NCBI GenBank assembly: GCA_010405405.1
Contig: MU004237.1
Span: 1,003,345 to 1,067,344 of the forward strand
Source: Microthyrium microscopicum
Taxonomy: Eukaryota
DNA length: 64,000 bases
Direction: 5' to 3'
Under the pieces are notes generated by a model. The model saw only the letters and a list, made by a program, of their open reading frames with translations. It was not told the origin of the DNA and did no database searches. This document shows positions 3,192-64,000 of this stretch, piece after piece. The position numbers and the translations under genes were made by a program. Each line of letters begins with the position of its first letter. Within the stretch, counting starts at the first letter, position 1.

Positions 3192-5001
3192 CTAAGTCGT
3201 TGGCCATGTACCCAAAACAAGCAATTCAATCCTCTGTATAAGAAATTCAACCTTGCGATGGTTCCCACAACCCAGGGAGCCTCGAGTAACAGTTCCAACT
3301 GCGTCTAGTGACAGTGTAGACACTACGCCTGCTCCAGTCTCCACACGTATTGCCCAATTAACCGTTCCTTCGGCTCCCGTCCGATCCATTGATCCTCGTC
3401 CAACCTCGCTTGAGCATTGTAGAGGCTCAAGCGCAAATATAATACTCTCTGGAAGTTCAGTTGTCGTGATATGACTGTCAGCAGACCCCCTTGTTTGGCG
3501 AAGAAAAGCACCACAGACGAAGTCACAGGCACCTTGCGGGCTCTCATCTGCAGAAAATAACCGAGATCCAGAAACCAGAATAAGCATCTCATGCCTACCT
3601 ATCAGTTTTAGCTTATCAATGCCCTCAAGAATGGCACCAAGTTCGCCCGTCAATAAGCTTGCGTTTTGTAATTGATACTGCGACCAAGCATCTAGAGTAT
3701 CTAGGGCGAATAGGATTTGCGCCAGACGAGGGGATGTTAGAAGGCTGGACTGATTGTGCAGGGCGGGTATAAAGGTGGTGATGTTTGAGTACTTTAGCTG
3801 TTGAGAGGCTGAGGGATATCCACGATCGCAATAGTCAGGGCTGAAGACACCTGAGCCCATTGTATTCTTAGGGCTGGAAGTAGCGGGTGGTGCAAGGAAG
3901 AGTTCTAAAAGGCATGGAAAGTATTCAACAGCATGAGGCTACATAAACACTGTCAGCATCCTAGGCTCATCCGCTTTGTGGGATAGCGATACGTACCGCG
4001 ACTTGCTTGAAGAGATAATCGAAATGTTCCCAATTAAAGTCAGACTCGACTTGTGACTTGAAGTGACCTTGGATTGTAGCAAGAATTGACTCTGTTGCTT
4101 TCCTGAGCCCCTGGCTATGCTCAGGAGTGTTTTCGATTTGAAGATCTTGACGGCGAAGTCTCAGTATCATCAAAGATCGCAGGAGAACTTCAATAGTCTT
4201 GAATCTTATACTCCCATCTAGTCTCCTTGAAAAGGAAGATGGAAAGCTACTGGCGGGCGGCAGTGGTGGTGCTCTATAAGGTGTATGGCATGGGTTCGGC
4301 CGCTTCCATCGTTTATCTGCTAGATAGGCCAAAGTGGCTTTCAAATCTTGATCATCTTCTTCTGTTTGAGTGACGGGCTCGTCAGTCATAGTGTTCTTTT
4401 CAATCGCAAGACTTTGAAAGATAATTCGCCGATAGGTATCTTGTTGATTTTCAGCGTCTGGGTGCTTAGCGAAACGCCCAGAGAGCATGACCAGAGCCGT
4501 GCTGAAAACTTGAAAGTTAAGGCGCGGTGCTGTGTCCATGAGATACGGGAAGGAACCGAGGCGAAGAAGTAAACGGTATAAAGAACCGACATCCAGTGAG
4601 AGGATTGGACAATTGTTGGTGATGATCTGACTGAAAACTCTAGTAAACGTCTCTTCAGTCCAATCTAAAGGATGTTTAGACTTTATTCAAGTCTTCTTCA
4701 TCCATGCGAGTAGCATCTACGTACATTTCTCAATATTTTCTGTGTCTTTGGAACAATGTTGGTTAAACAAATGACTGAGATAGACGAACTCCTCATACTG
4801 TAAGCAATCGTAGGCCAAGTACAGCGCAAACTTGCTCTGCAATGATTCTGGCTCGCATCAGCTCGGATATACTTGCAGAACGATACAATTAATCATACCT
4901 TTGCTTGTGAGAGGCTTCATGAAACTTCCTAAGCTCTCTGCATTGCGGAGTCTTTCGCCAGATCGGACCTTGTCAAGTCGTGAAGAAGGAGCTTGGCCCA
5001 T
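3192..5001 (-). CDS. Rtc5-like TLDc-family protein (divergent), at least 3 introns
   Basis: The spliced N-terminus reads MGQAPSS (myristoylation-type start) ... K|YWTEETF ... LYRLLLRLGSFPY ... FSTALVMLSGR ... YRRIIFQSLA, resembling the fungal Rtc5 N-terminus from memory. The C-terminal LILVSGS...GAFL...IFALEP segment resembles a TLDc domain. Confidence 0.6.
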
Positions 5002-5485
5002 TTCATTATCTGCTCTAAGTCAAAGTGGTTCTTCGACCATGAAACTGTTGGAGTAATCGTGGTGAAGGTGGAAGCCAGCGGGCAGGTAGGCTGGTGGGAC
5101 ATCGAATTGCTAGGCAGCGGTACGAATCCTGCTGGTCAGAATCGAGGATGCGCAATTATAGACCAAACAGGGTTCACCATTGGACCCAAATGGCAGAGAT
5201 ATCTTGTCTTCACTTTGACATCGATTTTCCCAGTCTATACCAGTAAATCGTAAAGTGACTGATTCCGTAGCAGCCATTCAGGATTATTCTGGCACAATGT
5301 TATGGATTCTCAGACGAATATGGGCACGGAATAGACAGAAAATATATTTTGAAATCTTTCCCAACTCCTACCGTAATAAAATGCTCTCTAGCATTCATTT
5401 GCCCCACAAAACTCCGTACTCATACAAATTCCTGCTCTCCATATCCACTTCTACACATCCTTATCCTGCGATCCCCTCATCCATT

Positions 5486-11004: not shown

Positions 11005-11060
11005 TGTTGCGATGTGGTGAATTGAATATGTCTTCGTAGAAAGGATGTTCTCAACTAAGG

Positions 11061-11082
11061 ACGCGTCGAAGATTGGACGCGT
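11061..11082. promoter_or_regulatory. Pair of MCB (ACGCGT) cell-cycle boxes upstream of RFA2
   Basis: ACGCGT at 11061-11066 and 11077-11082, 57-78 bp upstream of the RFA2 ATG. RPA genes are known MBF targets in yeasts. Confidence 0.65.
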
Positions 11083-11238
11083 CAAAGCAAAATCGCATGG
11101 TCACATGACCTGAATTTTCGCGGGGCAAATTCCAGTTTATTTTTTCGACTTGAACATTTTGGAAGCTCGACTGGCATCGAAATACCAACCTCGAAAGAAT
11201 TCTCTTCTGCCCTACCCAAGCATATCTACACAACAATC

Positions 11239-13956
11239 ATGAAGCGCAAAAGACCATCTCCTCCTGTCTCCGAAGCGGACTTTGATATATCTGGAGCGAT
11301 TACTGGACTGCAGGTTGACCAGGAAGATAATTCGGACTTCGACTTTGAACAGCCCATAGTATCTTCGACACAGAATGGCGCAGGCTTGCAAGGAGAGGAT
11401 AGCGGAGACGACAGCGATGCGGCTTTTATTGCTGCCCAGCAAGCAGCCTCAAATCGAAAGGCTACCAATCTCAAAGGGCGTACAGTGAAGAAAGGAGGTG
11501 CTTTTCAGGCAATGGGATTAAATGCTGGGCTTCTCAAGGCCATCACTCGCAAGGGGTTTTCCGTACCAACCCCTATCCAAAGAAAGACAATTCCCATTAT
11601 CATGGACGGGAGCGATGTGGTCGGAATGGCCCGGACCGGATCAGGAAAAACTGCAGCCTTTGTCATACCAATGATTGAGCGACTGAAATCGCACAGCGCA
11701 AAAGTAGGAGCTCGGGCGATTGTCCTATCACCATCTAGAGAGCTAGCTCTTCAAACGCTCAAAGTTGTCAAAGAGATGAGTAGGGCCACAGAACTACGCT
11801 GTGTGTTGTTGGTAGGCGGGGACAGCTTGGAGGACCAATTCAGCGCCATGACATCAAATCCGGACATACTCATTGCTACACCAGGCCGTTTTCTTCATCT
11901 CAAAGTCGAGATGAGGCTCGACCTATCATCAATCGAGTACATCGTATTCGACGAAGCTGACCGACTATTCGAGATGGGATTCGCCGTCCAGCTTACCGAG
12001 ATTCTCCACGGCCTGCCGACCTCGCGTCAGACTTTACTCTTCTCGGCCACACTTCCGAGATCCCTTGTCGAATTTGCGAGAGCTGGCCTCCAAGAGCCGA
12101 AGCTGGTGCGGCTGGATGCAGAAAGTAAAGTGTCTCCTGATCTAGAAAATGCCTTTTTCCTGGTCAAAAGTGCCGAAAAGGAAGGGGCCCTCCTGCAGGT
12201 ATTGCAAGATGTGATTCAAATTCCCCTATCTCTTGACAAGCCTCAGCCCGATGTAGCCGAAGATGAGATTAAACGGAGAAAACGGAGAAAAGTCATTTCC
12301 AAATCTGGTCATCTGGACTCGCCAACTCAGTATTCCACCATTGTTTTTGCAGCCACGAAGCACCACGTTGAATACCTCACCGCTTTCTTACGATTGGCTG
12401 GCTATGCAGTGTCTTATGCGTATGGCTCCTTGGATCAGACGGCGCGCAAGATGCAGGTGCAGGCCTTCCGAGATGGTGTGTCAAATATCCTAGTGGTCAC
12501 AGATGTAGCCGCGCGCGGAATTGACATTCCAGTTCTGGCCAACGTGATCAACTTTGATTTCCCTTCGCAGCCAAAGATTTTTGTTCATCGCGTCGGCCGT
12601 ACTGCGCGTGCTGGACAGAAAGGTTGGAGCTACAGTTTAGTGCAAGATGGTGATCTCCCCTACTTGATTGATTTGCAGCTATTTTTGAGCCGGCGTCTTG
12701 TTGTTGGCCGAAGTACAGATTTAGTCAATTACGCAGAAGACATTGTCTTGGGTACTTTGCCGCAGGATCGCCTAGGCAGCAACTGTGAATGGCTCGCCAA
12801 GCTTATTGACGAGAACGTTGATATCGACTCTCTCAAATCAGTCGCAGTCAAGGGTGAAAAGCTTTACACAAAATCCAAGAATTCTGCTTCAGCCCAAAGC
12901 GTGAAGCGAGCGAAGGAGATTCAAGCTCATCCTTCGATTGGCGAAGTCAGCTCACTCTTCACAACCGAAGAGGGCGAGGTGTCTGCCGGAAGAGACAGTC
13001 TACTGGCTCGCCTACGCAACTATCGACCCCAAGAGACTGTCTTTGAGATTGGCAAGCGCGGGACTGGTGACGAGACGGTGGAGCTACTCCGAAAAACAAG
13101 AACCAAGATCGAGCAGCGTAAAATTAATGCTGATGCAGCAAACGAAAATACTCTCCATGCTGTTGCCGAAGGATCACCTGAGATTTCCCCAGATATGGAC
13201 TTGCCAGTACCGAATATGCTGGAAGCTATGGACTCAGCCTCGGAAGACGAACTGGAAGTTACATTCCCCGGCGCAAATAGGCGAGATCGGAATTCTCTAC
13301 CTGACCAAGACTCGGAGTTCTTCATGTCCTATACGCCTCGATTTTCAAATATAGCCGAAGATCGAGCTTATGGTGTACAAACGGGCTCTAGCAGCAATGC
13401 CAGAGGGTCCAACTTTCTTTTGGACGCCAAGGATGCCACAATGGATCTAGCCAACGATGAGTCACGGGGATTTGCCGATGCTAGTCGTCCAAAAATGCGG
13501 TGGGATAAGAAGGGTAAAAAATACGTAAACACTGTCAATGATGAAGACGGGTCACGAGGGGCGAAGTATGTACGAGGAGAAAGTGGTTTGAAGATTGCAG
13601 CTAGTCTTCGCAGCGGTCGCTTTGATGCCTGGAAAAAGACAAATCGTCTCGAACGAATGCCACGCGTTGGAGAAAAGGAGACCGCCGCTCAGCGATCTTC
13701 AGCAAACAGCCGACCAGGCAAAACATACCGTCACAAGGGTGAAAAGGCACCCAAAGAGGCAGACAAATATCGCGAAAACTACCTTACGCAAAAGAAGCGT
13801 GTCACAGAAGCGAAAGAAAATCGTATCGGCCAATTCAAGGACGGTATGGGTAAAAACGAACTTCGCAGCGTCAATGATGTACGAAAGGATCGTAAGCTCA
13901 AGGAGCGTAGACAGGCTCGCAATGGTAGACCATCCGCGAAAAGGGGGAAACGATGA
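11239..13956 (+). CDS. DBP10: DEAD-box RNA helicase Dbp10 (60S biogenesis), single exon
   Basis: Q motif, ARTGSGKT, DEAD, SAT and HRVGRTAR, plus the DBP10CT-type RWDKKGKKYV...GESGLKIAASLRSGRFDAWK. Confidence 0.96.
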   Translation: MKRKRPSPPVSEADFDISGAITGLQVDQEDNSDFDFEQPIVSSTQNGAGLQGEDSGDDSDAAFIAAQQAASNRKATNLKGRTVKKGGAFQAMGLNAGLLKAITRKGFSVPTPIQRKTIPIIMDGSDVVGMARTGSGKTAAFVIPMIERLKSHSAKVGARAIVLSPSRELALQTLKVVKEMSRATELRCVLLVGGDSLEDQFSAMTSNPDILIATPGRFLHLKVEMRLDLSSIEYIVFDEADRLFEMGFAVQLTEILHGLPTSRQTLLFSATLPRSLVEFARAGLQEPKLVRLDAESKVSPDLENAFFLVKSAEKEGALLQVLQDVIQIPLSLDKPQPDVAEDEIKRRKRRKVISKSGHLDSPTQYSTIVFAATKHHVEYLTAFLRLAGYAVSYAYGSLDQTARKMQVQAFRDGVSNILVVTDVAARGIDIPVLANVINFDFPSQPKIFVHRVGRTARAGQKGWSYSLVQDGDLPYLIDLQLFLSRRLVVGRSTDLVNYAEDIVLGTLPQDRLGSNCEWLAKLIDENVDIDSLKSVAVKGEKLYTKSKNSASAQSVKRAKEIQAHPSIGEVSSLFTTEEGEVSAGRDSLLARLRNYRPQETVFEIGKRGTGDETVELLRKTRTKIEQRKINADAANENTLHAVAEGSPEISPDMDLPVPNMLEAMDSASEDELEVTFPGANRRDRNSLPDQDSEFFMSYTPRFSNIAEDRAYGVQTGSSSNARGSNFLLDAKDATMDLANDESRGFADASRPKMRWDKKGKKYVNTVNDEDGSRGAKYVRGESGLKIAASLRSGRFDAWKKTNRLERMPRVGEKETAAQRSSANSRPGKTYRHKGEKAPKEADKYRENYLTQKKRVTEAKENRIGQFKDGMGKNELRSVNDVRKDRKLKERRQARNGRPSAKRGKR

Positions 13957-16900
13957 GCAGTGGCCCCAAAATGAAATCATTTCTTTCTTGTATTTATTCA
14001 ATTATCTTCTTGATTATCAAATCGCGGACCACCAAGTAAACCGGGTTTGCGGTTTTCGGTGGATTTCCAAGTTACTTTTTCACCCTGCATCTGCTGATTT
14101 TCTGCAAACAAAAGGCAGGTAGTATTGCTGTCGGTAGTTGTTCTGACCTCCCAAAAGAATGGTAGCGCCGAGCATTGGTCTGCGTTGTGCATACGAGAGC
14201 GCATGATGAAAACCAATATTGCATATGCGGAGGCACTGACAGGAAACGATCATCTACCAACCTCAATGACTTATGCAAACTAATGGAATACGGTAGATCA
14301 AGTTACAAAGAAATCAGGATCAACCGTCTCTATATATCGTGACGTCTTTTGAGACAGGAATTCTAGACTCACCACCATATCTGCCACATCGAGGCAATAA
14401 TTGCTCCACCGATCGATATATCCAGCCTTGTCCCAACCTCGTGGAAGTAGTTCTATGGATTGCCAAGAATGGCAATAGTTCATAACATGACTACTACTTG
14501 TACAGGGTCAATAGTTTATGACTTGATCTTCCTCCGGTAACTTTCCGATCTAATTTCCGAACAGGAACACACTATTCGGCGCCTATATTGGCACTCGCAC
14601 TTGGTTTTTTAAATCCTTTAGATCATGAAGTGTTGGGCCAGCGCCACAGCAATAAGAGGCGTAGGCGCCAGAACCGTTGGCGCTTTGGGCAGGCGAGTTT
14701 CTTTGCTCTCTTGCGTCAGAAAACGCCATGAAACTTACCTATCCATTTCAGGACGCTCTAGATTCTAGGGAGGTTTGGCTCTGAGCTCTCAGGTCTTTTG
14801 CTTTTTACCGACAACGTGTTAGACAGCGGGAAGGGCGTTCACCGCGACTAAAGTAAAAAAAGGGTTCGAGGGGTTTTTTTCAACTTTTGATCTCTAGGCT
14901 AGCGATGGAGAAAACTGGCCTCGCTACGATATCAGATACGAATCCACATCGGCGAGATTTGGGGGCTCGTCGATGGCCTGTTTTTCGCCAGTAATCTTCT
15001 TGGGATTCGCTCGCTAGATGGCCGGCGGACCTGGCCTGAAGGGAGCAGGCGAATTGTTGGTGATCGTGGTGGTAATACGGAATTATTTGTGCTTGTATAG
15101 TCTCACCAAATGAATTAATCGAATGGATTACTCGACTTGCAATAGTTCGGGCGGGGAATTCCCCACAATCAAGCATTACTTCAGAGTGAATATCTCTGAC
15201 TCGAGTAACAAACATCCTCACCATCTGTTTTCAAGGCGTCCTCAATATCTCGAACCGTTTGTGGAGATGCAAGGATAGTTGTGGACACCATTCTTGTTTA
15301 CAAAAGAAGTTTAGAGAAAATGTTTGGAGGCTGTCAAAGCGAAATAGTCTATGCGTAACTTTGATCTGACATGTCTGACGACTTCATTTGCCCAACCCGT
15401 ATCCATAATATTCAACCTGAAGAAATGATCGTGAACTGCTCTGCCGGGCAAGAGGCATTTTGTATGGAGTATATTAGCTTCCATCCTGGCCATTTTATTT
15501 TTGGCGTGTTTTAGATGGCTGCACTGAAGTATAACAGATCGGATCTTCACCAGTCCGGGCATACTCTACATGCCCGCTCACCCGGGTATCTGGAGCTTGT
15601 CGATGGCGAGGTTAGGGCGATGGGGTCTTTGGCAGCTAGGGATATCCTTCCCTCAGATCAATCATTTTTTGGGTTGACTTGGTACGAGGGCAAGCTTCGG
15701 CGTTCAAAAAGCGCGAGGTTTAGATTGGAAACCTCGCTCTGAAGTTGAATATTAGGCAAACGGGGCGAGAATGACAAGACGTCGTCGTGAGTTGTTTCTA
15801 GGTAATTGTATCTCGGGACCGTCTTTCCACGTGGTGGTTATCTCACGATGAGTACCAAGCGACGCTTTTAGAAGTTATTGACAAATGATCTAATGGACAC
15901 TTTGTTGCATACTATGCTAAATTTTTAAAATATGTTCTATATCAATCCCTATATTTACCTAAGAAGTCGAATCTCCAATGTAACTCGACGATCTGCGCCC
16001 AGACAATACACTCGATCATAAGCACCCTGGATCTTATCTGCAAGGCACTTCCCAGTATAAAAAATCTCCGTAAAGGACCCAAGTTTCCCCTAGTCCGATA
16101 GAATATACCCACATCCTAGGAATATATTGATGTTCGTGCGACTCCGCAACTCACCTATTTGTCCTTCGAAAACATATTCCGTGCTCGGGGACACTATGGC
16201 TACCTGCACTATTCGATAAGTTCCGAATATGTCAGCTCACAAGCTCTTTCGGCAAACAAGAGCCGTGAGCACACAAGCAGGTCCCCGCCACGGGGTTTCA
16301 CCGGTCCCAACTGAAGACTCGTACAGACACTTTACTTTGCCTTGTCATACCTTCACTGCTACTGTTGTAACCAACATGTTTAAGGTATAACATTTCACAA
16401 CAGGGCGTGCCTTGCCTTCCGGTTGGCTGTAGGTGGAAGGACAGAAGCAGCTGAGATACATGTACTTGTGTTTGATATGTCTCGAATTGACATTTACTTA
16501 GCTGTTATTTCAGGTTGGTACACTAAATACATATGTTTCCAGGTATCATAACAGGACCAAGTATAAAATCGAGTTGTTCTATGATAGAAGTTTGGCCGCT
16601 ATGAGTCTAAGATTGTTTGCTGCGCCTCCTTACATGTGTGATGCAACTTCTAGACCTATAGCGAGCTTTAGTTCTTGCTTCCCTAAAGTAATTGAACTTT
16701 GTGTGAGGAGCACTACATGAATTACACATGCTTAGCGTCTCAGACACTGGTTGAGAAATCAAAGGGATTTACAAGGATCGGAGAATTCCTCCTGAGAACG
16801 GGTGGTTACGAGCTCATTTCTTATGTGGTGTACAAGGAGTGCTCTAAGATCTATGATTGTTTCTTCGCCGGTCTGATCAAAAGTAAAGCCAAGTCATTGT

Positions 16901-42478: not shown

Positions 42479-44643
42479 ATGGACCCTCTCAGCATCACTG
42501 CAGGGTGCATTGGTCTGTTGGAGTTCGCCGCGAAATGTATCCCCGCAACAATGAAGCTAGTGAGGGAATTTCGAGAGGCTAGAGAGCAGCTCACTGCTCT
42601 GCAAGAACAAATGGAAACCTTACGAAGAGTGGTCGATCTGATCAAGTACGAATGCGAAGGAATGGGAGACACCATTATTACGATGAAGAGCAGTGTACCG
42701 GCGCTGACCTCGGATGCTCTGGAAAACTGCAAGTCCATTATGGAGCAGATGTCAAATACTATCAGCAAGCATGGATCATCGCATACTGCATTTGCTACTT
42801 GGTGGGTGGGAATAGGCAAAGAAGAGGTTGAGAAATGGTCGAGGAAGTTGGAGCAACATAAGTCAACACTGGTCATAGCCCTTGAATACATTGAAATGTA
42901 AGCATATGGTTCGTCATTGGTAATGCTTAGCTAAGTTGTTCATAGATCTATCAGTAAACAAACAAAAGCCGACACCACCATTCTCAGAAGTGATACTACA
43001 GTCATCAAGACTGAGCTACGCGAGAATCACCAAGCTACAAAAGAAATTCTAGCTCTTATCAAAGCACAACATCCAGAATTGCCCACGGATCTGAAAGAGC
43101 TCAATCTGGATGATGGCTTGGATGAAGAGAAGGTCTTGGAGCAGATTGACAGCTATGCTGACAAGGCTGTGGAGGCTCAATATGGTTCGAAAAGAGCTTT
43201 GAAGAAAGAGTGAGTTTCAATGCTATCAAAAATACAGCGTCCACTAAATTGCTCCATAGAAATTCGGGAACATCTACACCTCCAAGAGAGCATACTGCAC
43301 TATTTGCTAAAGAATTAGATAGCGCATTTTCTGTGTCGACAAAGGTCAAAACTGAAATGGATGTGGTTCCAGAAGAAGACTTACCCAATTACAGCAACTC
43401 AGTCCCACAATCGCCTACTATACGGCCGGATACGAGGCGCAAATCAAGCCTTTCGAGCTTCAGCTTCTTCAAGTCTAGAAGAGAATCGAAATCTGGAAGT
43501 ACGAGTCCAGGTAGTTCTTATGATCCACATCGATCAGAGAGTACGGGGCAAGCGATAGAAAAAGACAGGTATATATGCCTCTTAGTAACACTGGGAAACA
43601 AGTCGATTAACATGTACAGAGCTCTATCATCAAACTCTTCGTTTAGCTCAGCAGGAAGATCGAGCATACTCTTTGAAAAGGTTCCAGACTTTGTTTCTTC
43701 ACTACCTACCAAGCAAATTTGGTCTCTTAGCATCCCAGATGCTCACCGCATGGGATTCTTTGTCAGCCGCAACAAAGCTTTCAAATACTTGTCTGGGGAG
43801 ATGACGACGATAAAGCTTAGCGAGATGCTTCCGCAGCCAAGAAATCCCTTCCCGATTGCCAAAGGATCCAAGATATGTACAATTTCCCCAGACGGAGATC
43901 AAGTCGCAGCTGTAAAGCATGGCGTTCGGGATAAACTTTGGCTATTCAACAGCCGGACATGGGAACAAACTGCACAGCTCAATTGTGACACTGGCGGCCA
44001 TTCAATGAAGGTAGCTTTCTCTCCCGATGCGCAATACCTCATTACCTTGAACATCTACAAGAAGCTGCAGCTCTGGGATATTGAAAAACAGAAGAGAGTC
44101 CACAGCAAAGAAATGTCTAGCTGCTATAAGATCGCCGTCTCGTCAGACAGCTCCAAACTCTTGATCGGCTTAGAATCTGGCGAGATACAAGTCTGGAAAC
44201 TCCGAACCTTCGAACGAAGAACATCAATCACATCTGGAGGAAAGGGATACGACAAGCGCATACTTCAATTTTCAGCCTCGCCTACTGAGATGAAGCTAGC
44301 ATATCTTACTGCTGATGGAAGAGTTGGAGTTCTGGATATAGATACTAATATCGCCCGAGAATGGGATATACCGGAAGGAGGGTGGACACAAGATAATGTG
44401 GAGAAGATCCGATTCAGTACTAATGGGCGAGATGAACATGTCGCCATCTCAGATGGTGGTAGGTTTGTGAGTTTGCTTCATCGCAGTACGCTGTTGGTAT
44501 GGGATACTCAGACAACAGCCCTATTGCATCGCAATGAAGCATTTGCGATGGCGCAGGTCACAGGTTCCAGAAATCTTCTGGTTCTCACACCGCCGCAGTT
44601 CCCAGCAACCGATGGGCTGTTGACAATGTACTCGCTCGGATGA
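42479..44643 (+). CDS. Fungal STAND N-terminal (HeLo-like/SesA-type) domain plus WD40 propeller protein; introns 42898-42945 and 43210-43259
   Basis: MDPLSITAGCIGL start and helical N-terminus ending ...LEQHKSTLVIAL. WD40-like repeats include ISPDGDQVA, VAFSPDAQYL...LQLWD and IQVWK. Both GT-AG introns restore the frame. Confidence 0.8.
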
Positions 44644-49657: not shown

Positions 49658-50901
49658 TCAATCCAGCTCCCATACAAGAGTCTCCCGCCCCTGGGTGCAC
49701 AAGATCGAATACGCGTTTCCTTCAAACGATTTGGCGGACAGAGAAAACCAATAATCCTTCTGACTATCTCGGAGCTGAAGAAATAGCGAAATGATACTGC
49801 GGCTCATCATGAGTCCTTGGACTTGAACGTGCACAAGCTGTTGCGGTGCAGCCTTGTCCTCAGCGTCTTGGGTGGACATACACGGTACTTCATATCGACA
49901 GATGTACTTGTCCACTTTGTCAGTCGTCTGAACACGCGGCGAATCCATCGAAAGCAATCCTAGCCATTCTAAAAGTTGCTCTTGATAGTCTTGATCTTTC
50001 ATTGCTCCTGACGATTTGGCAATGGGCACCACAGCATTCGGGATGTTTTGAATAGACAGGATGCATTCGCACAGTACCGAATTCTGATGTTCGATGGGGC
50101 ATGTGGTTCCCTCACCACGGCTCTTCTGGCCGCGATGAAAGTCATAAAAAAGCCATTTCACTGGCTCGTTGAGCACTCGAGTGAATGCCCAGACAATCCT
50201 ATCAAACCCCTTCTTGCCGCGAACCATCTGCGCAAGTCGTAGGTTGAGCTCTATCACTACCAAAAGGTTAAATCGTGTCCAGCAGTCCCAGAAAAGCACA
50301 TACCATAACGCGACTTGATATGCTTCCGCCCAAGGCTAGGAATTGCCCTGCCTGTCAGCCCACATCGTTCATAGGTGGGCTTGTCCAGTTCAAGTCTTAG
50401 AATCCCTATTCGAGTCGTCAGACTTATTCCTGGTCAGCTGCAGGCGATTTACCATCTTTTAAAGAAAAGCGGTTGTCGATATGTGGTCGACCTTCTGAGA
50501 GCAGAAATATGTTGCCTACAAATTATTAGAAGATGATCAGAATGGCTGGGCTGATAGTAAACATACCAGTCTTGATATAATAATTGAAAAAGTCTCCGGA
50601 TATTACCTCCAGTAATGTCATGGTTACCTTGTGGTATTCTGTTTGTAATGACTCTGGTGTGATGCTGGATTTAACAACCTCCCAGAGCTCGTGGGGAAGG
50701 ATCATGTCAACCTAAAGGTCTTAGCTCTGAAGTGAAATCTACATGTAATTTACTCACTGTATGACATGCTGCATTAGAGCTTATACTTGAGAAAGGTTTG
50801 CGCCGCTTTGATACATTTTTGGGATCAATTTCTGTTGGTAATTCAAGGTGTGTGAAGTAACATGGCGAACTGCGGATGGTTTGCGATTGCGAGAGAAACA
50901 T
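49658..50901 (-). CDS. RPP40: RNase P/MRP subunit p40-like protein, multi-exon
   Basis: IELNLRLAQMVRGKKGFDRIVWAF...WLFYD, LLEWLGLLSMDSPRV...VDKYICRYEVP and upstream FLLSEGR; this is the fungal Rpp40 pattern as I recall it. Confidence 0.75.
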
Positions 50902-51112
50902 GATGACAACTCCCGGAGCTACACCGCTTAGATGTCTCAGAGTTTTCAGTTCCGTCTCGAGGTCAATATGACATTTGTGGTTGTAAACGATAGAACTGTT
51001 TGATGGTTGAAGAGATCGAGGACATGAAAGGGACGCTAGCTCTTCATTGGGCTTAGCGTACCTCACGCAAGGCTGGCAGCCTTGCTGCGATATGCCAACT
51101 GATGGATAAAAT

Positions 51113-51303
51113 GACTGGCGTTCTCCCATCAGCGTCGATGACTCCCACGATCGCTACTAATTAGAAGGTGTTATAGTTCCCATCACATTCGATAAAATGT
51201 CCATGTCTAAACGCGCTCGATGGTAAATAAAGCATTCGATAGTAGATCGTCTTATATGGGAGCCATCGCACTCGCTGGGAGCGCGCCATTTATTTTGTCG
51301 ACC
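51113..51303 (-). repeat. Second copy of the ~200-bp element found in the NACHT intron (opposite orientation)
   Basis: The reverse complement GTCGACAAAATAAATGGCGCGCTCCCAGCGAGTGCGATGGCTCCCAT...CATGGA...ATCGAATG...GATGGGAG...CCAGTC is colinear with ~951-1140 (GTCGATAAGATACATGGCGCACTCCCATCAAGTGCGATGGCTACCAT...CATGGA...ATCGAATG...GATGGGAG...CCAGTC). Confidence 0.75.
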
Positions 51304-51958
51304 CCTCGATGTGCCATTTATTCGCTTTATTCAGCTTAGAAGCGCTTACGTCTTAGGAATTTGTTAATGCCAATGAAATAAATGGCCCCTTCTACTCAGA
51401 AGGTATGGTGGTAGATATCCCGGTCTGTAAAAGGTCAGCTATGAATTGGTTATTTGTGTAGTCTCATGCTATCACAATGGAAGGCAAGAATGATAACCCC
51501 TGTTTATGGTTAGACTTGTAAAGAAATATCTTCTGGCACATAGTACTCTAAGAGTGGAAATAACTTTCATTTATTATATCTGCAACATAGGACAAGGAGA
51601 TAGCTTTATGCTCTCAAAAGTCCTGTATTAACAGCTCTCGGTTTTGTATAGGAATGATACAAATAGAAAGGCAGCTAATGTACAGTTGTTTGTTGAAATT
51701 TTTAAGACTCTTCTAATCAACGTCCAGTCCCTAATCCCCCTGCCCAACTAGCTTTACATGTCAAATTTGTATGACTAGAATTCTGTGAGCTGTTGGGCTT
51801 ATTATTTCGTTCTCTTAAGCTCAACAAGACATTAGATCCGTGATAATACAAAGATTTGCGCGACGAAGACGTTCAGGCCCAGTGTTGATTAGAGTGGAAA
51901 GTCGGGTTAGAAAAACGTTTATATATTTGTTGAAATGGCAAATTGTGGTTATCTAACT

Positions 51959-52090
51959 GCGTTAGTAGTGTAGGTGAGGGATTTAATCTTTCCGCGATTA
52001 TAAGTTACAAGTCTAACCATAAACAGGGGTTATCATTCTTGCCTTCCATTGTGATAGCATGAGACCGGAGTTCGAGTCTCCGCTAACGCA
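51959..52090 (+). tRNA. tRNA-Gly(TCC) with a 53-nt spliceosomal-type insert in the D-loop (51974-52026) and a 7-nt canonical intron (52049-52055)
   Basis: Acceptor stem GCGTTAG/CTAACGC is perfect. The T-arm is CGGAG-TTCGAGT-CTCCG. After removing the insert the D-arm reads GTGT-AGGGGTTA-TCAT. The anticodon arm is CTTGC-CT-TCC-A^A-GCATG (one T.T mismatch) and the discriminator is A. Confidence 0.85.
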
Positions 52091-52098
52091 TCTTAATG

Positions 52099-52105
52099 TT
52101 TTTTT
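52099..52105 (+). terminator. RNA polymerase III terminator (T7) of the tRNA-Gly gene
   Basis: A run of 7 T starts 9 nt after the discriminator base. Confidence 0.7.
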
Positions 52106-52451
52106 GTTTAATTCTTTTTTGATATCAGAACGAAAAGTGTTGCAGGTTCCATAGACACTTTCTTTTTTGAAGATGTATTGACTTTGGGGTGGGCTGCTCA
52201 TGCTTTTGGCCTGCAATAGCGTGCAATGTGCAGTATTCTCAACGTCAAGTACAAGTGTGTAGCTTTAGATTCCAGGATTGATATACAGTGAATAAGATGC
52301 TATAAGGATAATTTACTGATATATGTAGTAAAAGATAATATTATATCTAGGAGTTAGAATAAGACTCAAGGGAAGTGCCAGGGACGCCGTAGTACATATC
52401 ATTTTGGCAGCATACTCCACAATGCACAGGTACATGACTGTAGATCCACTG

Positions 52452-53106
52452 CCTTATCGAGTACGATGGAAGACTGAGCGTCTTTCAATTTACGTGGAGC
52501 GCTGGCAGACATCGCACTTGCTGGGAGTGCGCTTTCTAAATCCCGTTCTCGTATCGCAACATGTGAGCTTTATGCGTATTTCCAACAAGTACAATGGCAA
52601 GAACAGTACATATAATTTATCAAGAGCGCTGGCGCCCATTGCACTTGATGGGAGTTCCCCGAGCCACTTCCTTAATTCGCACCGCTAATAGTAGATTCCT
52701 GTAGTCTTCCATTAAGTGTGATGGCAAGAACAGTACATCTAGTTTATCAAGAGTGCTGGCGCCCATTGCACTTGATGGGAATACGCCTACCTAGTATCTT
52801 AGTTTGCCACTTGATGGCGGATTTCTGCTGAGTTCCCATCAAGAGTGATGATCAAGTAAGTATATGCTATCTTTTCGAAGGCGTTTGGCGGACATCGCAC
52901 TCGGTGAGAATATGCTTCTATGGCTTCTCTTCAGGCCGAAAGAGATCTAAGATGCGCGCATACTCTCAGCAAGAGCGATGGCAAAGTATATATATATACT
53001 TTATCAAGTGCGCTGGCAGACATCGCACTTGATGAGAGACTGCTCCTAATCTTGGAACTCTGGAAGAGACATTGTGGATTGATCCCATCGAGTACTCTGG
53101 CTGCCA
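52452..53106. repeat. Tandem array of ~5 units (period ~127-130 bp), each a conserved palindromic core plus a variable ~50-nt segment
   Basis: GCTGGC..CATYGCACTTGATGGGA cores start at 52501, 52628, 52755, 52884 and 53012. Partner motifs CCCATCAAGWGYGATGG lie near 52456, 52584, 52711, 52838, 52968 and 53087. Confidence 0.85.
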
Positions 53107-56069
53107 TAAGATGCATAAATAATCTGTTCTGCATAAAAGATGTTAGGAAAGTTAGATAGCATACAGTATTGATCCAGGCTGGTAGCGAAATGTGTGGTCA
53201 ATCACTGAGTTATGGTTAAGATAATGTTGCTATATCCTTAGAGATTTGTTATGATATCTGTATAACTGTCTTCAAAGTAGCCTCTACAAGATTCATCGAG
53301 ATTATAATCTTATATTTCCTCTTGGTAAATTTCGGAACAGCAATATGATCAAGCGGCGGTTTTGAATACGCAGTCTCAATCGTCTCCACTTTCTCCCCTA
53401 AATTCAATGATATGTGCAGATTTGTTCTTTCCTTTTTTCAATTTTGTAAGCTGCTGATTTAACGTCGTAAATACTACTCTAAGAAAGAACAGGCATGAGA
53501 TAAGCGTTCCTTCTCCTCGACCACAATCATAAATTCTCACAGCACATAAGCACCTGGAACGATTCCTGGACAGTTCTTTCGCACAATATAATCCAACGGA
53601 ACTGATTCATTATTCCGCGAACCTGGCATAACGATATAGATACTAGAATCTTAACGACATCGGTTCAGAACGATGGGTTTCCCCGAAACTTGGAACTTTG
53701 TCAACTGCCGTATAGTTTCCGGTAAGGTGTCATTAATCACCATTTCAGGTCAAGTAAAGACTCGGATCTCTCGTATGTCGTGGATGGGTCTCCATCACTT
53801 ACAGTTGCTCGTAGCCAAGTATGCAGATGAGTACCTATCAGAGTGATTCATATTGGGTTATGCTTTGCCGATTGGAGTCACGACGACTTCTACATAAATC
53901 AGTGCTTAACATGCATTTCCAACCAACGGCCTGGGAAAAACAAAGTTATATCTGAAAAGGCATGAGCAATCAAACAATGGAAAACAAGCCAAAAGGATAT
54001 GTCGGTCTTCTACATCCTACATATGCTCCAGTCATGATAAAGACCGAAGCATGTACAGTTTCCGGATGGAGTGCTAACTGAGCGAAGAAGTTCGCCCTTT
54101 AAAGAGAAAGGCGCGGAGGCTGGCGAAGAGAAGATAATATGGTATCGAACAGACAGGTCGTTGAATCAGAGCGAAGTCTACATAAATAAGGTACCTAAGA
54201 TATAAATAGAGGCCCATATCGACCCATTTTCCAAAAAATCCACGCTGTTCCTTCGGGATTTCATACAATTTTCCAGCATATTTAGCAATATATTCGTTAA
54301 CCAACAAATATGAAGTGTAAGCTATTGCGCAATGAACTTCCCCAAACAGTTTCTAACGACTGCCCAGTATCAACTAGCCTCGCTTTCGTCACTCTTGTGG
54401 ACAGTGTTCTTGCTGGAGTCGGGTATATTGTAGCCGAGTTTTACATAATTCGATAACTCATCGTTGCAAAGAGCTGACTTGAATTATCACCCAGCTCTTC
54501 CGAATATGCTAAGAGACCATGTCTGCCGTTTTCATGTGGCAAGAAGAACTGGCAAGCATCTGCGCGTGCTAAGAGATTTCCTATCGAGAAACGAGCGCCT
54601 GAAGTCACAATTGTAGCCGGACAGGGGCGTCCATCTCCTTGTATTGATTATATGCACAAGACTGGAGTTACTCGAAAGAACTTACAATGCAAATCGAGCT
54701 TCAGCGTGCTTGGAAGTTATCCCTTGGAGACACTCATTTAGTTTAGTACGTCGATTCATCACAATCACATACGGCTTTGAATCATACCAACCTTGGAAGG
54801 TTTCTCTGACCTCCTATGCCTCTTGAAGCCTCTCACCTTCCTAATTCCAGCGCTATGATATCTTCGGAACCACTGCCGTCAAAATAAACTTTCATTTTCC
54901 AGTTACTCGCCTAGCATCATCTTGTCAAGACCCTGTGTAGCACATTGAATCACATGCGTGCCCACCCAGACTTCCATCACAGACTAAAATCCGTTGGCCC
55001 GCAATACCGAAGTTAAAACATATTACCTTCCATGGTTTAGCCGACGACTTCTGCGTTGGAACAAGTAGCACCTTGAAGTTCCGCACAGTGCTGGTGTCGG
55101 TGCTATGTCGGTGACGGGATTGAAAATCTGGAGAAAGGGCCGAATCGCGGAAATACTGTCTGGATGATGAGCCACTTGATGTTAGAGGGGCTGATCATAT
55201 CCCATGAGCAGATCAAGAACGGTGGAAGTGGTGAAGATATGCAGGTGCAGATTCAGAGGGTGATGAACGGGATATTCTATGTCGAGTCATGGATGTGCGT
55301 GATGTGTGATGTTGGTGTGGTGAAAATTGAGCGGGGTGGGATCTGCGTTGATGTTGCTATGCTATTAGGACATAGGAGAACGTTACCTGGAGCCTGACAA
55401 TGAGATATTACTTGAAAAAGTGCTGTATTGCTTGAAGGGAAGAGTGGTGGAGGAAGATGGGTTGGCTTGCAGTCTGATGTGTACTAATTGGGAAGCCACG
55501 CAAGGGATTCAAAAGCATGTGAATATATACAAGTGAAACACGCATACCTATAGCAGATGGCCTTTTTGAATGTTTGACCATTGTAGATAGATTGTGATAA
55601 TGTGACTACTCCCCATCATGTCTTCTTCATCCTTACTATTTCTGTGTTTGTTTCTTAAACCCGTATTACGTGGCGATTGTCATGGCATGATACAAGACCC
55701 TACTTCCACGGAGCACATGGATAATTCTCCTAGCTTACCATAAGTTCTAAAAAATACATCGACGGAACAACCGGAAAATTATCTGATCAGACACGAATTC
55801 TCCGACCCCATATATCAATCTCAAATCGTCGTCCGTAGTTGGTCAATATACGCCACAAGGAAGATACATCTGCTCCCTATTTCCTAAAAGAAGATTACTG
55901 ACTACCCCAATACTGACAATACGCTCTAGCTATACCATAATCGCACAACCTTTGAGCATACCAAAATTACTCAATCTTAAGCTCCAACAGTAGCACCAAT
56001 GACAACAATGGAAGCTTCATGTATATAATTTTACCTAGTCGGGCCTTGTTCGAAACGCGTAGTTGTCGC

Positions 56070-61087: not shown

Positions 61088-64000
61088 ATGGCTACTTCCA
61101 TGTCACCTCCAACATCTCCTATCGCAACCACCATGCAGCGACCCAAAAGCGCCATGATACGTCCTGTGACTAGGCCTCGCAGTCAATCTCGCATGAGCGC
61201 AAGTAGTCGGCAAGGTGCAAGCACAAGATCCGATGAGGATAATAAACATACTGCGGTTCGAGTTGGTAAGTCTTCATAGCGCGTTGCTTCCATCGTCGCG
61301 TCCTTGATTACCTCCAAAAATTCTAAATCATTTCAACTAACATTTTTCCGCAGCCGTTCGCGTTCGCCCTCCACTCAAATCCTCAGATCCAGGTTACGAT
61401 CTTGTCCCTCAACGTTTTCGCGGTTCCAGATGCCAAGTAACCAGCAACACGAGCTTGACTATAGACTCACAGCAGGGCAAGAGATTATTCGTGTTTGACC
61501 GCGTTTTTGGCGAAGATGTGGATCAAGATGGTGTGTGGGAATATCTCAGCGAAAGTGTCAACTCTTTTGTACAAGGCTACAATGTTTCTGTTCTTGCATA
61601 TGGGCAATCAGGAGCAGGAAAGTCCTATACAATGGGTACAACAGGACCTGGAGAACAAAGTGATGCGCGTTTAATGGGTTAGTACTCCGCGTGTTTTTTT
61701 TTGGCATTAAATGGCTGTTTAAAAGAACGGCTATGCCACGCGCAATACCTTTTGGTTCTTCGTTGAAGACTTACTGACATCCGCAGGAATTGTTCCCCGT
61801 GCCGCCGCAGCATTATTCGAAAAGCTTTCACCCGCACCCAAGACCGGTATTCGGCACCCTAATCGATATTCCCTAAATGCAATGTCAGCATTATCAAGCC
61901 ATTCGAACAAAGCAGAAAAAGACTGGAAGATGACAGCAACATATGTTGAGGTATGCTTAAGATGGGTTCTTTCCGCGTAAAATTCTAACTCCGCTTAGAT
62001 CTACCAAGAACAATTACGCGATTTATTAGTCGACGAATCAATTCCATACAACGAAAGACCACAGGTTTCTATACGAGAAGACTCGAAAGGAAGGATACTT
62101 CTTACCGGATTGAAACAAGTAACCATAAATTCCATCGACGATCTGCTCAGCGCTCTCAACTTTGGATCATCCATTCGACAAACAGATGCAACTGCTGTAA
62201 ACGCTCGGTCTTCCCGTTCACATGCCGTTTTCAGTTTGAATCTTGTTCAGAAAAAAGGACAAGTGACAACGACTCCCAAGGATAAACGTAGATCGGTCCC
62301 ATTGGAAGTTATGTCTGGATCGGAAAACTGGATTACTGTTGACAGCAAGCTACATTTCGTCGATTTGGCGGGAAGTGAACGTTTGAAAAATACTCAAGCT
62401 CATGGGGAGCGCGCAAAGGAAGGAATATCCATAAACGCAGGTCTCGCTAGTCTCGGAAAGGTCATCTCCCAGCTTTCATCTCGTTCAGTTGGAACACACA
62501 TATCGTATCGGGACTCCCGCCTGACACGATTATTACAAGACTCTCTTGGTGGAAAAGCCATTACCTACATGGTGGCATGTGTAAACCCAGCGGAATTCCA
62601 TCTCAGTGAAACCCTCAACACAGTTCAATATGCTCAGCGCGCCCGAGCCATTCAACTCAAACCCCAGATTCAACAAGTCCATGATGATAGCGACAAACAG
62701 GCTACGATTGAGCGGCTACGAGCTGAAGTACAATTCTTGCGTGATCAAATCAGACTTTCCGAGAGATCTGGACGACGAACTGATGCTCCTCAAGAACGGT
62801 TAGAGCGTGTCAATGAGCGAGAAATTGAACTTCAAAATCAGCTCTTGGACGTTCAAGAGAACTATACTGCTTTGAGTCAACGTCACGCCAAGGTAATATC
62901 TGAGATCGCCAAAGCAAGGGATTCTCCTTCCAGAAGTGATGGCTCCGCAATATCAGACGCAACCGGAAACTCGGCTATGGATCGCCTCAAAAAGTCTAGC
63001 GATTTTGCTGAAGCTGTGGAACAGGTGGTCCTTGAGTACGAAAAGACCATCCAATCCTTGGAGGCAAGCTTGTCCAACACGCGATCTTCCTTGTCCAACT
63101 CTGAAAGCACGCTTTTGGAAAAAGAGACCAAAATTGCATACATGGAAACCGTTAGCCAACAACTCCAATCCCGGTTGCAAAAAGCCATGGATCGCGAACA
63201 AAATGACGACAATTACCTTCACGAACTCGAATCGCGCGTGGCTGGCGCAAACACTGATGAGGAGAAGAGCATGGCCCTTGTCACTAGCTTGAAGAAAGAA
63301 CTATCAAGAGTACGAGAGAGCGAGGCGGGTGCTGAAGATTACATCTCCACGCTTGAAGAGCGACTGGCCGAAGCTGAGCAACAGCATGACATCATGTCTC
63401 GCGAAATTGACCGACTTGAGCATGTTGTTGAGAGACAACGTAGCATTAAGAAGTTGGATAATCTCCTGTATGAACTTGACCATATCCGCCAAAACGACGC
63501 GTCAAACGGTCTATTACCGACGTCACGCGATCCTGCACCGGCGCAACCTATCACCAATGGTCATTCTCGACATCCAGAGGACAGTTCTTTTGACACCATT
63601 GCTGAGGGTGAGTCTATAGAGCACATTGACGAGCTTGAAGGACAATCACATACAAAATCGCCAACACATTCTCGAGCAATCGATTCGCTTGGTGGCGCTG
63701 TTCAAGAACCTGTTGACGCGCAAAATGACTCTGAAGCAAGCCGAGCTCCTCTTCAAATCAACTCATCCAAAAGCATATCACATGATGCAGATGAGCAGCC
63801 CTCTAGCCCAGCTCAATCAAGATTCGTCAATGATAAGTTGGAAACCGTCACCCAAGAGTTGTTTGATTTGCGTATGGAACACGAGAATACAGTTGGTAGT
63901 TTCGATGAACTTCAACGAAAGTACCAAGTCGCTCTAACAACTATGGCTGAGCTTCAAGACGCCTTAGAGGACACTCGACATGGAAACATGTCAAGACCAA
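61088..64000 (+). CDS. Kinesin-4 family (KIF4/KIF21-like) motor protein, 3'-truncated by the window; introns ~61267-61353, 61678-61786 and 61951-61998
   Basis: AVRV|AVRVRPP, FVFDRVF, YGQSGAGKSYTMG (P-loop), NARSSRSHAVF, HFVDLAGSER, HISYRDSRLTRLLQDSLGG, then a long coiled coil. Confidence 0.92.

Follow-up and report, generated by a model that had tools for sequence, protein, structure and literature searches.

Can a transfer RNA (tRNA) gene be interrupted by an intron of the kind found in messenger RNA (mRNA) and nevertheless be a functional gene? This question is raised by a tRNA-Gly(TCC) gene of 132 nucleotides (nt) on the forward strand (positions 51959–52090) of a 64,000-nt stretch of Microthyrium microscopicum DNA (contig MU004237.1 of GenBank assembly GCA_010405405.1, positions 1,003,345 to 1,067,344; the whole stretch is hereafter called the window, and coordinates refer to it unless a relative is named). 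The D loop of this gene is split by a 53-nt insert, and a second, canonical tRNA intron lies next to the anticodon. On the basis of the sequence and its comparison with two related genes, we consider it probable (at roughly 0.6) that the insert is a conserved spliceosome-type intron in a functional, probably RNA polymerase III (Pol III)-transcribed family of tRNA genes of Dothideomycete-like fungi. Introns of the mRNA type are known in other non-coding RNA genes; what appears to be new here is the presence of one in a tRNA, together with a canonical tRNA intron.

The gene can be laid out piece by piece, with all parts on the forward strand. Exon 1 (GCGTTAGTAGTGTAG; 51959–51973) corresponds to tRNA positions 1–15 in the cloverleaf given by ARAGORN and comprises the 5′ acceptor strand GCGTTAG, U8 and A9, the D-stem strand GTGT, and A14 and G15. 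The D-loop insert follows (51974–52026), and its splice signals lead us to read it as a spliceosome-type intron: it opens with the 5′ splice site GTGAGG (51974–51979), carries the branch motif CTAAC (52013–52017; the branch A is 52016, 10 nt from the 3′ end) and closes with CAG (52024–52026). Exon 2a (GGGTTATCATTCTTGCCTTCCA; 52027–52048), which ARAGORN assigns to tRNA positions 16–37, supplies the rest of the D loop (GGGTTA), the 3′ strand of the D stem (TCAT), the anticodon-stem strand CTTGC and the loop CTTCCA, with the anticodon TCC at 52045–52047. After the canonical 37/38 tRNA intron called by ARAGORN (TTGTGAT; 7 nt, 52049–52055) comes exon 2b (AGCATGAGACCGGAGTTCGAGTCTCCGCTAACGCA; 52056–52090; positions 38–73 in our pair table), made up of A38, the anticodon-stem 3′ strand GCATG (in which T42 stands opposite T28), the variable stretch AGAC, the T arm CGGAG-TTCGAGT-CTCCG, the acceptor 3′ strand CTAACGC and the discriminator A. 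Removal of both inserts leaves a mature body of 72 nt, and a T7 run resembling a Pol III terminator lies 9 nt past the discriminator (52099–52105). The motifs and positions reported in a preliminary description of this locus, made from the sequence alone (that is, the 5′ piece, the insert with its GTGAG, CTAAC and CAG, the remainder of the tRNA and the T7 run), are all present in the sequence. The acceptor and T stems are perfect, as had been described (7/7 and 5/5 pairs); the description had omitted a U28·U42 mismatch in the anticodon stem (4/5 pairs), and the D stem has 3/4 pairs owing to U13·U22.

Interruption of the D loop conceals the gene from standard searches. ARAGORN in its default mode found no tRNA gene in the 64-kb window, and Rfam gave no tRNA match at the gathering score and none at E ≤ 10 on 51700–52400; when anticodon-loop introns were allowed, ARAGORN misread the locus as a tRNA-His(gtg) with a 58-nt intron. 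The preliminary description had predicted such a miss or mis-call, and had proposed that the sequence be searched again after splicing in silico. Once 51974–52026 was excised by coordinate, ARAGORN returned a tRNA-Gly(tcc) with a 7-nt intron at 37/38, and the standard models can be said to fail on the genomic sequence because of the D-loop insert. A structure-agnostic scan, which asked for a T stem of 5 bp closing a TTCRANN loop and then for 7 nt able to pair with a site 40–260 nt upstream, identified the interrupted gene as the sole tRNA-like gene in the window. With the setting -ps90, ARAGORN made five extra weak calls (4588–4677, 4973–5141, 15604–15703, 44416–44586 and 63726–63860), which are probably false, as none of the five passed the T-arm and acceptor scan.

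Relatives of the gene bear most directly on whether it is alive. We scanned metagenome contigs of the Joint Genome Institute (JGI) for the pattern TAGTGTAG, a gap of 35–65 nt, GGTTATCAT, six free bases and YTTCCR, which leaves free the GT, the AG, the branch site, the acceptor pairing, the T arm and the terminator. Two loci were found (L001 and L002), and both are interrupted tRNA-Gly(TCC) genes with all of these unrequired features; a single base was forced, the pattern's final G being the first G of the insert in both. The same pattern gave one match in 596 Gb of prokaryotic genomes (L003, in a Flavobacteriaceae metagenome-assembled genome), which was rejected as a relative, being without acceptor pairing, T arm, tRNA features or splice signals, and which serves as a control for chance matches; viral contigs scanned with this pattern gave none. 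L002 is, judging by its flank, from a Dothideomycete-like fungus, because a coding fragment at its end encodes the C terminus of an MFS transporter that shares 71% identity with a protein of Corynespora cassiicola and 69% with one of Lentithecium fluviatile, both Pleosporales. L001 has no readable coding flank.

Each of the three genes reaches the same plan with letters of its own. The acceptor stem GCGTTAG/CTAACGC of the window gene is replaced by GCTGATT/AATCAGC in L001 and GCGTCAT/ATGACGC in L002, the D-loop insert measures 53 nt in the window, 55 nt in L001 and 52 nt in L002, and the 37/38 intron 7, 15 and 14 nt, respectively. The insert begins with GTGAGG in the window, GTGAGT in L001 and GTACGT in L002. 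Its branch motif is CTAAC in the first two and TTAAC in L002, the branch A lying 10 nt before the 3′ end in the window gene, 14 nt in L001 and 12 nt in L002, and the insert ends with CAG, AAG and CAG, respectively; the downstream T run is T7 in the window and in L001, and T4 and T5 in L002. Excision in silico leads ARAGORN to call a tRNA-Gly(tcc) in all three genes, each with a 37/38 intron, and restores an 8-nt D loop in all three (AGGGGTTA in the window, AGCGGTTA in L001 and L002). Before excision, neither default ARAGORN nor Rfam (E ≤ 1) finds a tRNA in L001 or L002, and ARAGORN in intron mode mis-calls them as tRNA-Ser(tga) (L001 594–735) and tRNA-Gly(acc) (L002 594–731).

The manner in which these genes differ points to constraint on the tRNA body and on the splice signals. 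Using pair tables drawn up by position in a script (a MAFFT alignment of the unspliced genes misplaced exon 1 of the window gene and was not used), we found that the three 72-nt mature bodies are 72–75% identical and that 11 of the 21 stem pairs vary among them. Ten of the 11 hold Watson–Crick pairing through two-sided changes (for example, 5:67 occurs as T-A, A-T and C-G, and 51:61 of the T stem as A-T, T-A and G-C), and at the eleventh, 28:42, the bases pair in L001 and L002 but not in the window gene. No non-pairs occur other than U13·U22, common to all three genes, and U28·U42, confined to the window gene. The interiors of the inserts, compared against shuffled sequence after trimming of the first 6 and last 3 bases, are 0.46 identical between the window and L001 (shuffled mean 0.51) and 0.48 identical between L001 and L002 (shuffled mean 0.53); between the window (51974–52026) and L002 (608–659) the value is 0.68 (shuffled mean 0.55, s.d. 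0.05), a weak hint that these two introns may share descent. The comparison suggested in the preliminary description, in which homologous loci were to keep their splice signals over a diverging interior, came out in this sense: GT, branch and AG are kept in 3/3 genes (as TTAAC in L002) and interiors are at shuffle level in two of the three pairs, which lends support to its interpretation of the insert as a spliceosomal intron in a tRNA. The same architecture is kept in no fewer than two further fungi, one of which a flanking gene marks as Pleosporales-like, and it is therefore read as inherited and under selection, and not as a fresh lesion.

The most serious alternative is a pseudogene inactivated by insertion: a spliceosomal intron, or a short sequence of similar kind, would have entered one out of several tRNA-Gly(UCC) copies and left it silent or yielding a useless RNA. 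PMC4090602 states that insertions in the D or T arm of eukaryotic tRNA genes are usually taken for pseudogenes, which agrees with this alternative; the U28·U42 mismatch of the window copy fits it as well, and a 61-nt fragment of the gene recently copied nearby suggests that the region is rearranging. We nevertheless regard it as unlikely, as the three genes, at the divergence given above, keep every acceptor and T-stem pair intact by changing both partners, and U28·U42 is the sole defect in 51 acceptor, anticodon and T stem cells (17 pairs in each of 3 genes). Moreover, all three retain 5′ site, branch and 3′ AG as well as a terminator and the absence of T4 runs, while two of the three interior comparisons stand at shuffle level, a combination that would be unexpected for dead copies.

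If the gene is functional, the next question is which polymerase transcribes it. Judged against the consensus of the A and B boxes, the A-box region is interrupted after G15, and the T loop TTCGAGT is intact, with G53. The longest T run inside the insert is 3, as is the longest internal T run of the whole gene; the T runs in the other two inserts do not exceed this length either, and none of the three inserts would be expected to stop Pol III. The sequence TATATAT at −39 to −33 (51920–51926, forward strand), which is not conserved in L002, might be an upstream TATA element. We infer transcription by Pol III, as well as the order of the two splicing steps, from three features: a terminator, an intact T arm and a lack of internal T runs. 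The tRNA could instead reside within a transcript of RNA polymerase II (Pol II), either a non-coding host RNA or an untranslated region, of which the insert would be an ordinary intron and from which the tRNA would be cut out later or never. The spliceosome normally acts on Pol II transcripts, and the gene sits in a stretch without long open frames (51331–56000) that may contain an unannotated non-coding transcript. Such a host is nonetheless improbable, given that all three genes have a T run just past the discriminator and no T4 inside, as a Pol III unit needs, that their B-box-like T arms are intact and that no host exon signals were seen.

How would the insert be removed? Four cut registers (−2 to +1) yield an identical spliced product, because the junction bases repeat, and just one of them has GT...AG. 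In simulations of 2,000,000 random inserts per setting (53 nt at 40% G+C, and 55 nt at 45% G+C), about 6.5e-5 of the inserts had all three signals (that is, a start GT[AG]NG, a motif [CT]T[AG]A[CT] with its A 8–25 nt from the end, and a terminal AG), and the chance after allowing for four registers is about 3e-4 for the window gene alone. Across the three genes, the inserts have the marks of U2-type GT-AG introns in their GTRNGY-like 5′ sites, branch and length, and in a 3′ YAG except for the AAG of L001. For comparison with the mRNA introns of the host, a crude intron finder that joins open frames gave 10 candidates in the window (two with a common donor), of which seven are 47–58 nt and three are 88–96 nt long, with GTAAGT-like 5′ sites, a branch motif (CTAAC, CTGAC or CTAAT) close to the 3′ end, and YAG. 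As GT[AG]NG, CTRAY and YAG were demanded by the filter of this finder, independent information comes only from the sizes and the joining of frames; with this qualification, the resemblance of the insert to the mRNA introns of the window that had been claimed is borne out, the signals being alike and the length of 53 nt falling in the short class that holds 7 of the 10 candidates.

The competing mechanism is cleavage by a protein enzyme other than the spliceosome. The eukaryotic tRNA splicing endonuclease measures position through a ruler mechanism and reads no motif, and were it, or another protein enzyme, to cut the insert in the manner of ectopic tRNA introns, the GT, AG and branch-like motifs would be incidental. 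A complete bulge-helix-bulge (a 4-bp central helix pairing the end of exon 1 with the end of the insert, 3-nt bulges, outer and inner helices) is present in none of the 8 equivalent registers of the three genes. The test is so strict that even the canonical 37/38 introns of the same genes do not pass, as fits an enzyme that measures position, and it is therefore limited in power and would pass over relaxed recognition. Excised D-loop and D-arm introns do occur in eukaryotic tRNA genes, and some nucleomorph introns have no defined bulge-helix-bulge, according to parts of PMC3978253 and PMC4090602. Yet the inserts have no stable or shared fold, each of the three splice signals is found in 3/3 genes against the low chance expectation per insert given above, and the insert is of the same size as the short mRNA introns of the window, so that endonuclease cleavage appears more doubtful still than a Pol II host. 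A self-splicing or otherwise structured insert was also considered and rejected, as the folds do not stand apart from those of shuffled sequences (z of 0.10, −0.81 and 0.17 for the window, L001 and L002, respectively). Very little credence is due to another possibility, in which the insert stays in place and the 132-nt RNA has some role other than that of a tRNA: the interior is unconserved and lacks a stable fold, and it is the splice signals and the tRNA body that are kept. We thus return to spliceosomal removal of the D-loop insert, which is the most likely mechanism and, in our estimation, appreciably better than an even bet; it is favoured because the conserved signals are exactly those that the spliceosome reads.

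A route from gene to mature tRNA by way of the spliceosome can be envisioned as follows. Guided by the T-arm B box and by the A-box-like TAGTGTAG still present in exon 1, Pol III would start a few bases upstream and terminate in the T7 run. The spliceosome would then excise the D-loop intron as a lariat, joining G15 to G16 at a junction that restores the 8-nt D loop AGGGGUUA with G18 and G19. The tRNA splicing endonuclease and ligase would take out the 7-nt intron at 37/38, after which the ends would be trimmed and CCA would be added.

Several observations weigh against a spliceosomal intron in a functional gene, and to the mismatch at 28:42, absent from L001 and L002, and the customary reading of D-arm insertions as pseudogenes, both discussed above, the following must be added. 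Only three examples are at hand, two of which, L001 and L002, come from contigs some 1.5 kb long. The GT-AG register of the window gene (G15/G...AG/G16; position 15/16) lies 1 nt downstream of that of L001 and L002 (A14/G...AG/G15; position 14/15), a shift that could be intron sliding through compensating one-base changes or could reflect separate gains at neighbouring AG/G-like sites. The insert of L001 ends in AAG, a departure from YAG and a less favoured 3′ splice site. We found no precedent for spliceosomal processing of a pre-tRNA whose 5′ exon amounts to 15 nt plus leader. Finally, none of the sequencing runs found to contain the locus is recorded as RNA, and one run guessed to be RNA yielded no sequence of it, although gaps in such data prove nothing. 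The locus was found in four DNA sequencing runs of one sample, possibly the source of the window, and no joints, variants or extra contigs were seen at the locus in these DNA runs (reads at 80% likeness; here, too, holes prove nothing).

Our search of the literature, in which most subscription journals lay outside the coverage, returned no report of a spliceosomal intron in a tRNA gene. The closest counterparts are other structured RNAs. The U6 RNA of Schizosaccharomyces pombe is actually spliced, and as U6 is a Pol III transcript with a T-run terminator, it provides a precedent for a Pol III product processed by the spliceosome. More broadly, the accessible sections of PMC5855946 describe spliceosomal introns in the genes for U6 (noted as a Pol III transcript), U1, U2, U5 and ribosomal RNA (rRNA), and discuss reverse splicing. 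Hosts of such introns are U6 of S. pombe and other yeasts, U1, U2 and U5 of Rhodotorula hasegawae and rRNA of some ascomycetes. Like the introns of U6, other small nuclear RNAs and rRNA, the present insert is a short GT...branch...AG intron in a conserved, structured non-coding RNA gene. Unlike those of U6 and the small nuclear RNAs, it has a tRNA as its host, which is not a component of the spliceosome and is not among the hosts listed in those sections of PMC5855946; this gene also bears a canonical tRNA intron (that is, two splicing systems would act on one RNA), and the intron splits the A-box region.

A second comparison is with the ectopic tRNA introns of Cyanidioschyzon merolae, nucleomorphs and archaea, which are endonuclease substrates (passages of PMC3978253 and PMC4090602). 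The insert shares with those of C. merolae, the Guillardia theta nucleomorph and Crenarchaeota a site in the D loop or D arm, often beside a canonical intron, and the property of being missed by tRNA finders, as far as the same passages describe them. The ectopic introns differ in being cut by the endonuclease, mostly at a bulge-helix-bulge, and those of nucleomorphs are 3–24 nt long in the text consulted, whereas our strict test found no such motif here and, unlike ectopic tRNA introns, the insert matches the short mRNA introns of its host in length and in all three signals. Canonical tRNA introns of eukaryotes span 6–133 nt, by the figures in part of PMC4090602, and the 7-nt intron at 52049–52055 is of this 37/38 kind and within that range. 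The 53-nt insert, at 15/16, is far from the position that the endonuclease measures.

With regard to origin, the insert may have arisen by reverse splicing, as the preliminary description suggested, and introner-like elements, which have stable folds, are a possible source of it. They are portrayed in the available text of PMC4457414 as spliceosomal introns of Dothideomycetes that multiply into new sites, and this is the fungal class to which L002 and the window appear close. Such elements occur as many near-identical copies in one genome; within the 64-kb window the insert has no other copy except the 61-nt fragment, and the three inserts are dissimilar and show no unusually stable fold.

The 61-nt fragment is an exact inverted copy of 52005–52065 (61/61 identical in blastn), located 483 nt upstream of its source on the minus strand (51461–51521). 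It spans the last 22 nt of the insert, exon 2a, the 7-nt intron and exon 2b as far as C47, with no similarity beyond the 61-nt core, and was therefore rejected as the remains of a second gene and classed as a gene fragment. In three DNA runs of the probable source sample, the unitig of these 61 nt has about twice the depth of its neighbours, so that two copies of the stretch would be expected genome-wide. The copy has the look of filler DNA of recent date, taken either from the gene or from its precursor before splicing. In minus-strand orientation it brings a 3′ splice signal, CTAAC...CAG, to a place upstream of the adjacent gene on that strand. This divergent upstream neighbour (49658–51330, minus strand) encodes a subunit of RNase P/MRP, its open reading frame at 49658–50335 matching Pfam Ribonuc_P_40 with an E value of 3.6e-32; the presence of a tRNA-processing gene beside the interrupted tRNA gene is probably a coincidence. 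Farther away, a gene for a DBP10-like helicase (11059–13956) has its best named relatives, 60–63% identical, in Dothideomycetes (Macrophomina, Lasiodiplodia, Oleoguttula and Cryomyces) and Lecanoromycetes, with others up to 68%, which places the genome among the Pezizomycotina, at some distance from any named relative in the database searched.

The consequences extend first to the annotation of fungal genomes. Because ARAGORN and the Rfam tRNA model overlook or mis-call the interrupted genes, inventories of fungal tRNAs may miss a Gly(UCC) gene or carry a false tRNA-His, tRNA-Ser or tRNA-Gly(ACC), and odd tRNA calls with long introns in fungal annotations may flag more genes of this kind. If the reading proposed here is true, tRNA would join U1, U2, U5, U6 and rRNA as non-coding hosts of mRNA-type introns, and, after U6, the gene would provide a second and independent example of a Pol III product handled by the spliceosome. 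The site of the insert in the D loop, at AG/G or A/G, bears on the birth of introns at proto-splice sites. Spliceosomal and tRNA introns are presented as unrelated classes in the portions of PMC12530127 and PMC10275265 at hand, and a tRNA gene in need of both systems would join, in one RNA, two splicing pathways that have been treated separately. As for the fungi themselves, we tentatively propose, at somewhat less than an even chance, that in a Dothideomycete-like lineage the tRNA-Gly that reads GGA and GGG would be made from genes with a conserved spliceosomal intron in the D loop in addition to a canonical intron, that the Pol III-made pre-tRNA would need both the spliceosome and the endonuclease, and that in some fungi these interrupted genes may be the sole source of tRNA-Gly(UCC), which would make translation itself dependent on the spliceosome.

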